This document shows, one piece after another, positions 2,299-50,049 of a stretch of 64,000 nucleotides of DNA. The position numbers and the translations under genes were made by a program. Below the pieces are notes generated by a model that saw only the letters and a list, made by a program, of their open reading frames with translations, had not been told where the DNA came from and did not search any database. How positions within the stretch are numbered: the first letter of the stretch is position 1; each line of letters starts with the position of its first letter. The DNA is from Eledone cirrhosa (lineage: Eukaryota). Where the stretch lies: NCBI GenBank assembly GCA_964016885.1, contig OZ024740.1, positions 65,348,001 through 65,412,000 of the forward strand, read 5' to 3'.

Positions 2299-2480
2299 AC
2301 AGATTGATTTTTGTAGTTTCAGAAGATCCCATTAAGGGTGAAAGCAGCGATTCTTTGCTTAAAATTTAATCTGTTATTTTAATAAATATTTGCTCTAGGG
2401 CTCTTATATATTTGATATATAATTATCCTTATCTAACCCGCTTTGGATTTTAGTCTTCACATTTATTATTATTACTATAT
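2299..2480 (+). mobile_element. Short non-coding dispersed repeat, family A (other copies 9349-9532, 45263-45450, fragment 45951-45991), with an atypical HHR-like motif
   Basis: Shared sequence ...AATCTGTTATTTTAATAAATATTTGC...GGATTTTAGTCTTCA...TTATTATTATTAC running into (TA)n in three copies; hammerhead-like topology at 2315-2365. Confidence 0.75.
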
Positions 2481-2525
2481 TATATATATATATATATATA
2501 TATATATATATATATATATATATAT

Positions 2526-2991
2526 GAATGTATATATAGCGTATTTTGCAATACACTGTATGGTTAATTAAGAGCATTTCGAAGAACTTACGCTATTGTT
2601 TTAGAGTAGTGATATTCTCACTTACTTTAAATTTTCAGCAAACAGGGGAGATTAAGCTGACAGAGCTGTGTTTCGTACTGATTGGTACTTATCAAAGCCA
2701 AGTACTCCACCTGTTTGCTGAAAATCACGAATGTTTGATTCTTATAGAATTTTTAGTAATAATCAGGAACTGATTATACAGAGCGGTTGCCGGTCAAGCA
2801 GGAATTGAAAATTAGAATTGGCGCTCTGAAATAGCGATATATATATATATATATGAATGTATATATAGTGTATTTTGCAATACACTGTATGCTTAATTAA
2901 AAGCATTTCGAAGACCTTAGGCTATTGTTTTAGAGTAGTGAGATTCTCACTTACTTTAAATTTTCAGCAAACAGGGGAGGTAAAGCTGACA
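2526..2991 (-). mobile_element. HHR-bearing short repeat, family B: full unit (2526-2838) plus a partial tandem copy (2854-2991); PLE pLTR/retrozyme-like
   Basis: 2526-2661 is repeated at 2854-2991; flanked by (TA)n and (CA)n; contains the HHR at 2655-2699. Confidence 0.75.
2655..2699 (-). ncRNA. Type I hammerhead ribozyme, U3:A8 core
   Basis: Minus strand reads GGCU-UUGAUAA-GUAC(caauca)GUAC-GAAAC-acagcucu-GUC/AGCU; stem I is extended by pairing of 2631-2650 with 2705-2725. Confidence 0.8.
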
Positions 2992-3015
2992 CACACACAC
3001 ACACATATATATATC

Positions 3016-3113
3016 GGGGTCCTACTCGTTCCTATTATCCACTCTACTACCCTAAGTATTGAGTACTTTGGTGCGTTATGGTCCACCTGGTTCCCTTTCA
3101 CATTTCCTTCGTT
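3016..3113 (+). mobile_element. 3' fragment of HHR family G starting at the predicted cleavage site
   Basis: Near-identical to 40496-40593 (GGGGTCCTACTCGTTCCTATT...CATTTCCTYCGTT then (TA)n). Confidence 0.8.
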
Positions 3114-45450: not shown

Positions 45451-46520
45451 ATATATATATAAATATAAACATATATAATGAATAAATACGAAATGCGTTT
45501 TTATATGTACATCTTTTTATTACTGTGGTTGTTACCTTACCGAGAAAATCCTAAGGAACACAAATCGTAGGGAGTTTTACATCTTTTAACAAAAAAGTCG
45601 GTGGTGTATATGATCAAGCAACTTTCATTAATCTCTCTCGCGCTCTCTCTCTCTCTCTCTCTCTCTCTCTCTCTCTCTCTCTCTCTCTCTCTCTCTATAT
45701 ATATATATATATATATATATATATATATATATATATATATATATATATATATAGAGAGAGAGAGAGAGAGAGAGAGAGAGAGATATTTATATACGTATAT
45801 ATACATATATATATATATGTATGTATGTATGTATGTATGTATGTATATATATATATATATATATATATATATATATATATATATGTGTGTGTGTGTGTGT
45901 GTGTATATATATATATATGTGTATGCCATATATATATATATATATATATAGTAATAATAATAAATTTGAAGACTAAAATCCAAAGAGGGTCTTATTTTCA
46001 ACGACCATTCCACATATTACAATGAAGTTCTTGCTCGGAGTGGATATACATATATGTATACAGACGTACAGTAGCATGCATATATATATATATATATATA
46101 TATATATATATATATATATATATATATATATATATATATATATATATACATACAGGTACACATACATATATGTACGTATCAGTTTAGCGGACGTTTATTA
46201 TAACGCCCGCTTTGTCCGTTTGTAATTTGTAAACAAACTGACAGCCCGAATTTATGCCGTACGGTGTTAAGGCAACCACGTCACCCTTTTGTTCAACACT
46301 GACACAGGAACGATGTACTAGTTTCACGCTTGTTAGCTATCATCGTGGTTGCCTTAACACGTGGTTGCCTTAACACCGTACGGCATAAATTCAGGCTGTC
46401 AGTTTGTTTAAAAATTACAAACGGACAAAGCGCGCGTTATAATAAACGTCCGCTAAACTGATACGTACATATATGTATGTGTACCTGTATGTATATATAT
46501 ATATATATATATATATATAT

Positions 46521-48933
46521 ACATTTTATTACTAATTATATCTAAATGTTTCTTCTCTCTTCATAATGTATTTTTAACTCTGATACTGGTTCAGTCTGGT
46601 TCAAACTGAATTGGTCTGTCCCAGTCATTCATTGAGCAACATCGGTGAAGTTGGCACCCTTAACTCACAGTTGGGTGCGGATGCATTCATGTATATATGT
46701 GTGTGTCCGCATGTATCTGTGTGTTTCTAAATATATTAATAACTCCCTCTGGTCGAGCAATCTTTGAAGTGTGGGGACAACTGGAAAGCTTCCATTACTC
46801 ATACTTCTCGCCTTCTTCACTACCTCTTCTACGGCCTCGATATGAATACCCCCTCCGCCTCCGTGGTATTTTCTTCGTGGTTATAAGAGGCTTAGCTCTG
46901 TTTCTCGACCGTTATATCGCGTGACTGTCTCCCCCTCCGCCTTTTGGGATTCTTTCTCACGTCGTGTAGACGCGTTCTTGAGACTAGTAAAATGAGGTAT
47001 CCTCTTGATAAGTCGGCAGACCTCGCAAGGACTCTATATCTTTGATATATTGTTTTTGTTTATGCCACGAAACTACGTAGTCGAGGAATTTAGGAACAGT
47101 TTAGGTATGATACATTTTATTACTAATTATATCTAAATGTTTCTTCTCTCTTCATAATGTATTTTTAACTCTGATACTGGTTCAGTCTGGTTCAAACTGA
47201 ATTGGTCTGTCCCAGTCATTCATTGAGCAACATCGGTGAAGTTGGCACCCTTAACTCACAGTTGGGTGCGGATGCATTCATGTATATATGTGTGTGTCCG
47301 CATGTATCTGTGTGTTTCTAAATATATTAATAACTCCCTCTGGTCGAGCAATCTCTGAAGTGTGGGGACAACTGAAAAGCTTCCATTACTCATACTTCTC
47401 GCCTTCTTCACTACCTCTTCTACGGCCTCGATATGAATACCCCCTCCGCCTCCGTGGTATTTTCTTCGTGGTTATAAGAGGCTTAGCTCTGTTTCTCGAC
47501 CGTTATATCGCGTGACTGTCTCCCCCTCCGCCTTTTGGGATTCTTTCTCACGTCGTGTAGACGCGTTCTTGAGACTAGTAAAATGAGGTATCCTCTTGAT
47601 AAGTCGGCAGACCTCGCAAGGACTCTATATCTTTGATATATTGTTTTTGTTTATGCCACGAAACTACGTAGTCGAGGAATTTAGGAACAGTTTAGGTATG
47701 ATACATTTTATTACTAATTATATCTAAATGTTTCTTCTCTCTTCATAATGTATTTTTAACTCTGATACTGGTTCAGTCTGGTTCAAACTGAATTGGTCTG
47801 TCCCAGTCATTCATTGAGCAACATCGGTGAAGTTGGCACCCTTAACTCACAGTTGGGTGCGGATGCATTCATGTATATATGTGTGTGTCCGCATGTATCT
47901 GTGTGTTTCTAAATATATTAATAACTCCCTCTGGTCGAGCAATCTTTGAAGTGTGGGGACAACTGGAAAGCTTCCATTACTCATACTTCTCGCCTTCTTC
48001 ACTACCTCTTCTACGGCCTCGATATGAATACCCCCTCCGCCTCCGTGGTATTTTCTTCGTGGTTATAAGAGGCTTAGCTCTGTTTCTCGACCGTTATATC
48101 GCGTGACTGTCTCCCCCTCCGCCTTTTGGGATTCTTTCTCACGTCGTGTAGACGCGTTCTTGAGACTAGTAAAATGAGGTATCCTCTTGATAAGTCGGCA
48201 GACCTCGCAAGGACTCTATATCTTTGATATATTGTTTTTGTTTATGCCACGAAACTACGTAGTCGAGGAATTTAGGAACAGTTTAGGTATGATACATTTT
48301 ATTACTAATTATATCTAAATGTTTCTTCTCTCTTGATAATGTATTTTTAACTCTGATACTGGTTCAGTCTGGTTCAAACTGAATTGGTCTGTCCCAGTCA
48401 TTCATTGAGCAACATCGGTGAAGTTGGCACCCTTAACTCACAGTTGGGTGCGGATGCATTCATGTATATATGTGTGTGTCCGCATGTATCTGTGTGTTTC
48501 TAAATATATTAATAACTCCCTCTGGTCGAGCAATCTTTGAAGTGTGGGGACAACTGGAAAGCTTCCATTACTCATACTTCTCGCCTTCTTCACTACCTCT
48601 TCTACGGCCTCGATATGAATACCCCCTCCGCCTCCGTGGTATTTTCTTCGTGGTTATAAGAGGCTTAGCTCTGTTTCTCGACCGTTATATCGCGTGACTG
48701 TCTCCCCCTCCGCCTTTTGGGATTCTTTCTCACGTCGTGTAGACGCGTTCTTGAGACTAGTAAAATGAGGTATCCTCTTGATAAGTCGGCAGACCTCGCA
48801 AGGACTCTATATCTTTGATATATTGTTTTTGTTTATGCCACGAAACTACGTAGTCGAGGAATTTAGGAACAGTTTAGGTATGATACATTTTATTACTAAT
48901 TATATCTAAATGTTTCTTCTCTCTTCATAATGT
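46521..48933 (+). mobile_element. Family H retrozyme-like array 2: about 4.08 head-to-tail 591-bp units, one HHR each (47000-47087, 47591-47678, 48182-48269, 48773-48860)
   Basis: Exact 591-bp period (ORF track 46697, 47288, 47879, 48470); near-identical units; (TA)n on both flanks. Confidence 0.9.
47000..47087 (+). ncRNA. Type I hammerhead ribozyme (family H), first of four in array 2
   Basis: UCCUC-UUGAUAA-GUcGGCA...UGCCAC-GAAACUACGUAGUC/GAGGA; GUC at 47080-47082. Confidence 0.82.
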
Positions 48934-49270
48934 ATATATATATATATATATATATATATATATATATATATATATATATATATATATATATATATATATA
49001 TATATATATATATATATATATATATATATATGCATGCTACTGTACGTCTGTATACATATATGTATGTACGTATACATACATACTTACATTTAAGTAAGTG
49101 CCGTACTAAGAGTGAGAAATGAAATGTCCTTTTCATCTTATTACAACTTATCGTTTTCGGTGCGCCTAGCCGACTGAACTCACTCGATATTCAAATCAGG
49201 CTGCTCAGCCGTTAATTTTCATAAGGAAAGTATATACTTTCGAACGTTCAACCATCTGGCAGAAGGGTAT

Positions 49271-49313
49271 ACGGTGCTGATGATAGCTAACAAGCTTGAA
49301 ACTAGTACATCGT
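49271..49313 (+). ncRNA. Minimal type I hammerhead ribozyme (family F), canonical core
   Basis: ACGGUG-CUGAUGA-uAGCU(aaca)AGCUu-GAA-ACUAGU-A/CAUCGU; palindromic helix III; GUA at 49305-49307. Confidence 0.88.
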
Positions 49314-50049
49314 TCCTGTGTCAGTGTTGAACAACAGGGTGACGTGGTTGCCTTAATACCGTACGGCATAAATTCGGGCTGTCAGTTTGTTTACAAATTA
49401 CAAACGGACAAAGCGGGCGCTATAATAAACGTTCGCTAAACTGATACGTACATAAATGTATGTGTACCTGTATGTATATATATATATATATATATATATA
49501 TATATATATATATATATATATATGCATGCTACTGTACGTCTGTATACATAGATGTATGTACGTATACATACATACTTACATTTAAGTAAGTGCCGTCCTA
49601 AGAGTGAGAAATGAAATTTCGTTTTCATTTTATTACAACTTATATATATATATATATATATATATATATATATATATATATACATAGATTATTTTACAAT
49701 TACTACGCTTAATACTTTTGCGATACCTTAGGTCTTGACGTCCAGTTGTGGTCACCCTTACAATGCTGGCCTCTCATCGGGCATCAAGACGAATTACGAA
49801 AATTACGGTTAGCTTAAAAAATGTTGTTTTAATATAGTGGAGAGCACATTTTCGAGAACAAGGGAGGGCATTCACGTGTTCTTAATTTCTCGTGTCTACG
49901 AATCTTTGAAGCGTGCACATGTGTAATATGTGCGAGAAAATTCGTAAACTTATCTGTGTGTATGTGTAGTATTGGTGTGAGTTGAGTTGTAAGTTAATTA
50001 TCTTAAAAACTTAAACACTTTAAAGGAATTCGTTACATATAAATATGGT

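Follow-up and report, generated by a model that had tools for sequence, protein, structure and literature searches.

The 64-kb stretch of Eledone cirrhosa DNA analysed here (called the window below) is crowded with apparent hammerhead ribozymes, which raises four questions: are these folds real, what carries them, do they cut RNA, and how did they come to be inserted here? They were sought with a home-made type I descriptor (YUGANRA core, helix II, GAAA, helix III, UH and helix I) at four stringencies, with 30 global and 30 local dinucleotide shuffles per stringency as controls. The window gives 3, 15, 13 and 14 cores at the four stringencies, against shuffle means of 0-0.53 and a maximum of 2, and the union of the descriptors gives 20 matches against 0-2 in 15 shuffles, the comparison that an earlier note on this DNA had proposed. 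All 18 type I sites named in that note are recovered, with coordinates agreeing to within a few bases. The two additional matches are 34079(-), a further real fold that sits in a repeat family with a conserved core, and 4975(-), which has a U3-G8 mismatch and a 1-bp helix III and was set aside as a probable chance match. The descriptor places no constraint on the 3-8 pair; C3-G8 or U3-A8 is present in 19 of the 20 window matches as against 56% of background cores. In 400 kb from 40 loci elsewhere in the genome there are 35 matches (1-4 in shuffles), 34 of which have one of these pairs (60% of background cores). The 19 accepted folds have a CUGANGA or UUGANAA core, GAAA and NUH, helices I-III and an open helix I. 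Thus the shuffle comparisons and the unimposed 3-8 covariation, together with the fixed position of the fold within the repeat ends, leave a negligible probability that the motifs are random matches in AT-rich repeat DNA, in spite of the fact that the Rfam hammerhead models stay below cut-off (the window as a whole yields none at E<=1; Hammerhead_1 reaches only 18.9 bits at 31863-31912 in a 551-nt search, against a gathering score of 34). Penelope-type hammerhead variants are known to deviate from the canonical shape (PMC4209133). The sites had been called intact-looking, which is true of their sequences but not of their folding: in 19 of 19 the local minimum free energy (MFE) structure is more stable than the catalytic fold, by 0.3-9.0 kcal/mol. 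Decayed motifs had been mentioned there too; decayed relatives were found at 4355(+), 16994(-), 18527-18627(-) and 46118-46521.

The 19 folds fall into nine dispersed repeat families (A-I), where at least eight unrelated ones had been claimed; no DNA similarity was found between families beyond TA runs, but four of them share one protein clade. Eight folds lie in families B, C, D, G and I, each the 3' end, truncated on its 5' side, of a Penelope-like element that codes for protein; C, D, G and I are of Hydra type and B is of Neptune/Nematis type. Ten folds lie in families A, E and H, which consist of tandem monomers, 317-595 nt long, without an ORF. The remaining fold belongs to family F (33990-34095, minus strand; core 34079, predicted cut after 34004), which was absent from the earlier list, has copies that are 79-89% identical, and is older. 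The folds are Penelope-type, in agreement with the previous view that such ribozymes lie in Penelope-like element repeats. The description of the region as a dense community of non-autonomous ribozyme retroelements is right in that it is dense, ribozyme-bearing and tied to (TA)n, but ORF-less repeats hold only 10 of the 19 folds. The high density is a genome-wide trait, one fold per 12 kb or about 80 per Mb, for a likely total of ~245,000 (range 133,000-380,000), and the window is only ~3.6-fold denser than the genome.

The coding families can be described as follows. Family G forms a two-armed insertion between (TA)n tracts at 40019-40592, a Hydra-type 3' end made of an inverted arm with the short 3' end (40019-40176, minus strand, core 40121; short and long ends are explained below) and a direct arm with the long end (40171-40592, plus strand, core 40410); a G fragment without a complete ribozyme (3014-3112, plus strand) has its start 2 nt 5' of the predicted cut and reaches the long 3' end. 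Elsewhere in the genome family G joins a 717-aa ORF within 3531-bp tandem units, and many copies encode the protein intact. It carries RWR, DKT and CxCX5C motifs, which are found in 113, 112 and 111 of 120 homologues, respectively; of the homologues only one, from a bivalve, is named. Its predicted structure has a pLDDT of 93, and the top two Foldseek matches of this model are telomerase reverse transcriptases (E 4e-8 and 5e-8). Pfam gave no relevant match for the G protein and three homologues, nor did a PDB sequence search with the G alignment give any. Because Pfam is silent and the fold search reports only the reverse transcriptase (RT), the G endonuclease is assigned from motifs: G, C, D and I have a degenerate putative GIY-YIG motif, recognized by eye and by regular expression. 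Families C, D and I join ORFs related to that of G with the CxCX5C linker; I (unit 3514 bp) has an RWK-type motif, DKT and the linker, D has DKT and the linker, and C has the linker, its other motifs lying beyond the copies examined. In the window C is a Hydra-type element end at 18526-18860 (plus strand; core 18671, predicted cut after 18725), with the decayed motif at 18527-18627 as its inverted arm. D is 1.8 kb of Hydra-type 3' UTR with the short end (30181-31957, plus strand; core 31868, predicted cut after 31906), and I is the long end of its element (44925-45231, minus strand; core 45132, predicted cut after 45088). The four are classed as Hydra-type by motifs, (TA)n insertion and description rather than by a tree against reference elements.

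Family B is represented by an inverted arm with the long 3' end (4629-5071, minus strand; core 4798, predicted cut after 4770), a direct arm with the short 3' end (5133-5712, plus strand; core 5606, predicted cut after 5635; 3' UTR of a Neptune/Nematis-type element) and a solo 5'-truncated copy with (TA)n on both sides (11197-11349, plus strand; core 11239, predicted cut after 11268). A reading of B as non-autonomous, from 6 loci, was overturned by copies joined to an ORF in which Pfam finds RVT_1 and GIY-YIG (PF01541 above cut-off), and whose protein has DKG, a CX4CxxC linker and the GIY-YIG domain at its C-terminus. All five families therefore run upstream into ORFs with RT and C-terminal GIY-YIG, putative in the case of the Hydra-type four, which lie 0.6-2.4 kb upstream of the ends in other copies.

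The ORF-less families are by sequence candidate non-LTR retrozymes. Family A is a ~320-nt tandem monomer present as one unit and part of the next (2519-2987, minus strand; core 2695, predicted cut after 2659) that ends in (TA)n. Family E comprises a ~467-nt monomer that contains a (TA)n tract and has the long end (48975-49643, plus strand; core 49277, predicted cut after 49307), a second subfamily 83% identical to it (32035-32426, minus strand; core 32278, predicted cut after 32248), and a fold-back insertion on both strands in which the 5' half of the ribozyme is missing (46046-46521). Family H is a two-armed insertion at 40629-42272, with an inverted arm with the short end (40629-40898, minus strand, core 40785) and 595-nt tandem units with the long end (40895-42272, plus strand, cores 41360 and 41955), and an array of four 591-nt units between (TA)n tracts with the short end (46516-48935, plus strand; cores 47005, 47596, 48187 and 48778), with 0-2 differences between units. 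The longest ATG ORFs in the H, E and A monomers are 75, 70 and 25 aa. As circles these monomers fold with z-scores of -4.6 to -8.3 relative to 40 shuffles, and tandem units that each have a complete hammerhead occur in the window for H and elsewhere in the genome for A and E. Circular 591/590-nt H contigs from runs X1 and X5 were rejected as circular RNA, since contigs of this sort turn tandem DNA into an apparent circle; these runs (of unstated kind) also contain low-depth pieces of family G.

How did these repeats arrive? A (TA)5+ tract begins <=350 nt downstream of 15 of the 19 predicted cleavage sites as against 34% of random positions, so the adjacency to (TA)n reported earlier holds, and the four folds without a near tract are internal tandem units. 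Eight families (A-E and G-I) share a Penelope footprint: (TA)n flanks, variable 5' truncation, partial tandems, inverted arms, an optional tail, the hammerhead in the terminal repeat, and two fixed 3' ends, short and long, that lie 20-310 nt downstream of the predicted cut site. Both ends are seen again in run X2, where they are loose ends in (TA)n. Among 69 inverted pairs, 64 join a short to a long end, 5 are short plus short and none is long plus long, and alternating TA microhomology of >=3 nt is present at 11 of the 13 ends with known continuation (null 0.11). The one-short-one-long arm pairing and the TA microhomology are the new details.

Could A, E and H instead have spread as satellites by DNA duplication, or through LINE-type enzymes, with their link to (TA)n incidental? 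Their ORF-less tandem arrays reach at least 11 units, R4/Dong-like, RTE-like and L1-like remains lie in the window, and no diverged homologue of A, E or H beside an ORF was found in about 1.5 Mb of loci (locus L213 was considered as a coding parent of H and dropped, the H junction being present in only 1 of 20 related loci). Against this, the copies lie scattered on many contigs, 94-100% identical and without a poly(A) tail, and their two fixed ends, inverted arms and short-plus-long pairing are the same as those of the coding families, which makes such an origin quite improbable. As no protein-coding parent was found, the mobiliser is deduced from these footprints: the A, E and H monomers are likely copied by Penelope-like element enzymes.

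The presence of folds on both strands had led to the proposal that any transcript crossing the region would be cut repeatedly, which would make it a shredder of RNA, host RNA included. The folds of G (40410) and A (2695) are closest to the local MFE (gaps of 0.3 and 2.0 kcal/mol), tandem H units could pair as dimers, and some 5' ends lie near the predicted cut: of 19 G copies joined directly to (TA)n, 9 start <=2 nt from it (best 100 of 1,739 matches), 4 of about 24 two-sided G copies are at it (best 100 of 5,893 matches), and among 35 H 5' ends (best 100 of 517 matches) 3 are exactly at it, with 30 downstream and 5 upstream. In D, by contrast, 5 of 15 copies start at -4 to -6 and 0 of 15 at +1 (all 74 matches; these are all hand tallies), so that the clustering seen in G is absent from D. 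Since D copies never start at +1, such pile-ups, on which the families conflict, may equally be RT stalls at hairpins, and they were not taken as fossil proof of cleavage. Helix III in most families is a short self-complementary arm of the dimer type, and helix I has a pairing probability of 0.00-0.49. Published Penelope hammerheads have low activity (PMC4209133), one needs the element's protein and gives no RNA-seq ends at its site (PMC11167929), and only 1 of 9 Xenopus dimers was cleaved (10.64898/2026.07.22.740005). Pfam found no host exon in 100 of the 146 candidate window ORFs below 53 kb, a weak test whose matches were one low-complexity sequence and one RT-linked DUF6451. As most folds look dimer-dependent, repeated cutting of any transcript is unsupported and a shredder unlikely; cleavage at NUH in these families is predicted. 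The most likely role of the ribozyme would be to cut read-through RNA from tandem copies down to single units, acting as a dimer or with the aid of protein, rather than to cut host transcripts.

We conclude with considerable confidence that these folds are hammerheads of type I, carried by the terminal repeats of Penelope-like elements inserted into (TA)n and by ORF-less monomers that the same enzymes likely copy, probably through nicking and two fixed RNA sites, with RNA cutting a prediction. The endonuclease would likely start by nicking (TA)n, and reverse transcription likely begins at the two fixed internal sites, where the nicked (TA)n end may anneal to a short UA stretch of uncleaved multimeric or re-circularised RNA. 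Both target strands would prime, each at a different site, to give one short and one long arm, and (TA)n left beside older copies could take new insertions, so that clusters build. The serious competitor, which we hold to be quite plausible without preferring it, is a single priming event with fold-back or template switching, the second end being set by repair at TA microhomology. Self-priming has been proposed for Penelope inversions (PMC3846280), and G copies that consist of the tail only are often found between (TA)n tracts (10 of about 24 loci with a direct join, best 100 of 5,893 matches), so the short site is also an annealing point at 5' junctions. However, the arms share the same 3' region and yet truncate independently, with either one the longer, and a Penelope protein in vitro extends both strands from two sites (PMC11167929). 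Priming on both strands at two sites thus remains our preferred account. A bolder version of it is tentative and, in our estimate, somewhat improbable: that this is the densest hammerhead load so far (about 80 per Mb, against about 4.5 in axolotl) and that the route is an undescribed one, common to retrozyme circles, in which one RT-endonuclease dimer would nick both (TA)n strands and prime telomerase-style, each DNA end on a different UA site of one multimeric or circular RNA.

With its young and nearly identical copies, this one genome makes three open points testable: the mobiliser of animal retrozymes, as ORF-less monomers here bear the insertion footprint of neighbouring coding Penelope-like elements; the origin of Penelope tails and inverted arms, for which the near-strict short/long pairing and the TA microhomology give sharp predictions; and the response of a host to such a fold density. 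An in vitro system already exists for another Penelope clade, and the intact 717-aa protein is multicopy here.

Ribozymes in Penelope repeats, Hydra-type (TA)n targeting and retrozymes have all been published, and most of what is described here is known biology. Elements of the Hydra clade have a single ORF with RT and C-terminal GIY-YIG, an RWK-type motif, DKT and CxCX5C, a hammerhead in the repeat and (TA)n insertion (Craig et al. 2021, PMC8557442); C, D, G and I agree with them in ORF plan, motifs, hammerhead repeat and (TA)n, and in partial tandems, an inverted 5'-truncated arm and a tail at one end. They differ in size (generally <3 kb in the Hydra clade, a tendency, as against units of at least 3.5 kb with 3' UTRs of 0.6-2.4 kb), in tail length (30-40 bp as against about 80-100 nt in G, C, I and D) and in abundance, with tens of thousands of copies here where the available text of PMC8557442 has few further families outside cnidarians. 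Family B resembles Neptune/Nematis in DKG, the CX4CxxC linker, RVT_1, C-terminal GIY-YIG and a microsatellite bias, and is set beside either one by description rather than by comparison of reference sequences (PMC8557442). A, E and H are like non-LTR retrozymes (Cervera and de la Pena 2020, PMC7229834; Li et al. 2026, 10.64898/2026.07.22.740005) in being ORF-less tandems with one type I hammerhead per unit and self-paired predicted circles; animal retrozymes co-exist with Penelope-like elements and have been proposed to be mobilised by them. The H unit of 591-595 nt is above the 150-450 bp of retrozymes and within the 51-972 bp of Li et al. (10.64898/2026.07.22.740005). A, E and H carry the full Penelope footprint, whereas neither inverted arms nor fixed ends nor a (TA)n target are described for retrozymes in the available text of these two papers. 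In vitro, Poseidon from Anolis carolinensis (Frangieh et al. 2024, PMC11167929) likewise has its tail set by two internal start sites of RT, 3' of the hammerhead; cutting and extension take place on both strands of the DNA, and insertion does not need hammerhead cutting. The Poseidon start site has no homology to the target and is the same for both strands (PMC11167929), whereas in the present families TA microhomology is found at 11 of 13 ends and the arms of a pair almost always use different sites.

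Type I hammerhead cores were sought on both strands of the window with our own descriptor at four stringencies. These gave 3, 15, 13 and 14 cores, whereas dinucleotide shuffling (30 global and 30 local shuffles per stringency) never yielded more than 2, with means of 0-0.53. The earlier note had listed 18 hammerheads and proposed a comparison with shuffled sequence; the descriptor recovered all 18, and the union of stringencies comprises 20 matches in the window versus 0-2 in 15 shuffles. One additional fold lies at 34079(-), and a match at 4975(-) was set aside as a probable chance match. 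Positions 3 and 8 of the core were left free in the descriptor; they are paired (C-G or U-A) in 19 of the 20 window matches versus 56% of background cores, and in 34 of 35 matches from 40 other loci versus 60% (P 4e-7). Rfam searches returned no hammerhead at E<=1 in the whole window and, in a local search, a score of 18.9 bits (cut-off 34). The hammerhead folds in the window are real and well above chance. The 19 folds sort into nine families, A-I, that share no DNA similarity except TA runs, in agreement with the claim of at least eight unrelated families, and their reported adjacency to (TA)n also holds: a tract begins <=350 nt downstream of 15 of the 19 predicted cut sites versus 34% of random positions.

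Are these families a non-autonomous community, as had been supposed? That description stands for families H, E and A, which lack ORFs, but families B, C, D, G and I join coding ORFs, which places 8 of the 19 folds in the truncated ends of autonomous elements. Longer copies of family G extend into an ORF that is intact at 717 aa in many copies, also in 3531-bp tandems, and whose protein carries RWR, DKT and CxCX5C motifs (in 113, 112 and 111 of 120 homologues, respectively). Such motifs, when they occur with hammerheads and with insertion into (TA)n, mark the Hydra clade according to Craig et al. (PMC8557442), and the G element resembles that clade in each of them. A Pfam search did not recognise the G protein, and the first matches to its model (pLDDT 93) in structure comparison are telomerase RTs. 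Families C, D and I reach ORFs related to that of G (33-57% identity in aligned pieces), which share its linker and lie 0.6-2.4 kb upstream of the ribozyme. An early reading of family B as non-coding was overturned by a distinct upstream ORF with DKG, a CX4CxxC linker, RVT_1 and GIY-YIG; its parent is a Neptune/Nematis-type element.

Families H, E and A form head-to-tail monomers of 591-595, ~467 and ~320 nt, respectively, each monomer having a single ribozyme. Their longest ATG ORFs are 75, 70 and 25 aa, and their circular monomer folds have z values of -6.9, -8.3 and -4.6, in the same order. By sequence they fit the definition of non-LTR retrozymes in PMC7229834 and 10.64898/2026.07.22.740005, and no coding parent for them was found among the loci fetched from elsewhere in the genome. 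All families are dispersed, the best 40 copies being 94-100% identical in eight families and 79-89% in F, which is older than the others.

In the eight young families the 5' ends are variable and often adjoined by a truncated inverted arm, and there are two fixed 3' ends, short and long, downstream of the predicted cut site, followed by (TA)n. These lie at +80/+245 nt in H, +20/+100 in G, +55/about +157 in D, +56/about +152 in I, about +45/+135 in C, about +140/+165 in A, about +160-190/+309 in E and about +80/+140 in B. Outside the window, a tenth family (J) of Hydra type has a hammerhead with a loop II of ~105 nt (at 2990-3120(+) of locus L213 and in loci L247-L266) and likewise two fixed ends. 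The G and H ends recur as (TA)n loose ends in sequencing run X2, which may be the assembly's own sample. The stretch between the fixed ends is the Penelope 'tail', which PMC3846280 and PMC8557442 describe as an optional feature on one of the inverted repeats and which PMC11167929 showed to span the interval from one RT start site to the other. Many family G insertions among the matches listed are the 80-nt tail alone between two (TA)n tracts.

The two ends are not combined freely. Among 69 distinct inverted pairs from fetched loci (2 of family J), 64 combine a short with a long end and none has two long ends, yet long ends make up 139 of 290 arms. The other 5 have two short ends, a count biased by the choice of some loci with queries containing the long end (the absence of long pairs is not so biased) and including some weakly classified calls, from families that contain internal TA tracts or from sister families. 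By hand reading, 11 of 13 ends whose continuation is known share >=3 alternating T/A bases with the target, as against 11% of positions within those elements.

From the anatomy, parents, target and ends observed, we infer the insertion steps as follows: transcription would read through a tandem locus, the element's endonuclease would nick (TA)n, and the DNA 3' end would anneal, 20-310 nt downstream of the ribozyme, to a UA stretch from which RT would copy back across the ribozyme, so the template there would be uncleaved or re-joined. With both strands priming, the two sites would be divided one per strand, which suggests that a single dimer acts on a single RNA; single priming with fold-back is a fair alternative source of the pairing rule. 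ORF-less monomers would present the same signals in trans, and (TA)n remaining at each end would draw the next insertion, which would account for nests such as 40019-42272 and 46046-49643.

Do the ribozymes cleave? In all 19 folds the catalytic structure is less stable than the local minimum by 0.3-9.0 kcal/mol; in most families the helix III arm is short and self-complementary, of the dimer type, and G at 40410 and A come nearest to folding alone. For Penelope hammerheads, one study reports weak cleavage (PMC4209133) and another cleavage that requires protein (PMC11167929); 1 of 9 Xenopus dimers cleaved (10.64898/2026.07.22.740005), and coral and mussel retrozymes cleave and form circles (PMC7229834). 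Hand tallies of 5' truncation points among the matches listed give a pile-up of 9 of 19 at the predicted cut site in G and a 30:5 step across it in H; a hand tally for D gives 5 of 15 at 4-6 nt beyond it and 0 at it. Stalling at hairpins explains these pile-ups equally well. A scan of 100 window ORFs detected no host exon. The earlier suggestion that any transcript crossing the region could be cut repeatedly is therefore unsupported.

The contig that contains the window measures 443 Mb, in a genome of 3.0 Gb. Forty 10-kb stretches at round coordinates, a non-random sample in which small chromosomes are over-represented, contain 35 folds versus 1, 2, 2 and 4 in shuffles, or 82 folds per Mb (bootstrap 44-127). 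This extrapolates to ~245,000 folds assembly-wide (133,000-380,000), which runs low because loop II of family J exceeds the descriptor; the axolotl has 126,247 motifs by a different descriptor (PMC7229834) in 28.2 Gb (10.64898/2026.07.22.740005). Exact counts of the ribozyme 3' half are 14,990 for B, 7,545 for H, 35,134 for G, 27,535 for E and 72,714 for C plus sister families, in total 157,918 (controls 0-4). These counts also take in copies whose truncation falls within the ribozyme, as well as haplotigs if any are duplicated. The window is ~3.6 times denser than the genome average (P about 0.001, resampling), largely because of seven H units. A family G copy recurs every ~105-170 kb within a large segmental tandem duplication (G000:C20:3498549-4890525), with related blocks on sequences C23 and C27.

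Other elements share the window. Two broken, partly tandem non-LTR copies, 91% alike, at 55110-60118(-) encode RT and a C-terminal PD..D restriction-like nuclease and sit in (TAA)n (flanking tracts at 55021, 56876 and 60293); we take them to resemble R4/Dong elements. At 60639-63929(+), fragments of ORFs precede an APE-type endonuclease ORF (PF03372) that continues up to the window end; they are presumably L1/Tx1-like. A LINE-type RT fragment (RVT_1, DUF6451) at 29431-30424(-) has its end against a 5'-truncated family D copy, and a broken ORF of ~390 aa at 53612-54768(+), with no Pfam match, looks to us like a DNA-transposon protein. Decayed hammerheads of two further families lie at 4335-4420(+) and 16930-17010(-); loci L182 and L097 contain intact relatives. 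Another (TA)n-flanked repeat (2288-2475, 9376-9516, 45248-45480), in which no hammerhead was found, forms inverted pairs and is often nested beside ribozyme families. A very common short interspersed repeat (9548-9740, 33796-33936, 51137-51895; >130 matches in fetched loci) is presumably SINE-like. Long near-perfect palindromes or inverted pairs at 16189-16399, 17072-17164, 17603-17700 and 18036-18533, in which no ribozyme was detected, are either MITE-like or short two-armed insertions.

A literature search, mostly outside subscription papers, turned up no earlier account of the pairing rule, of TA microhomology at Penelope start sites or of such density; the end patterns may already be in the supplements of PMC8557442 (Hydra families, ribozymes, targets) and PMC11167929 (junction data). 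In the Anolis element (PMC11167929), the start site is not homologous to the target and both strands use both sites, whereas the window families show TA overlap at 11 of 13 ends and short/long pairing. The window is largely explained by known classes, namely Hydra-type and Neptune/Nematis-type Penelope-like elements and non-LTR retrozymes; its new aspects are the scale, the greater tail length, a Penelope footprint carried by retrozymes and the two quantitative rules on insertion ends.
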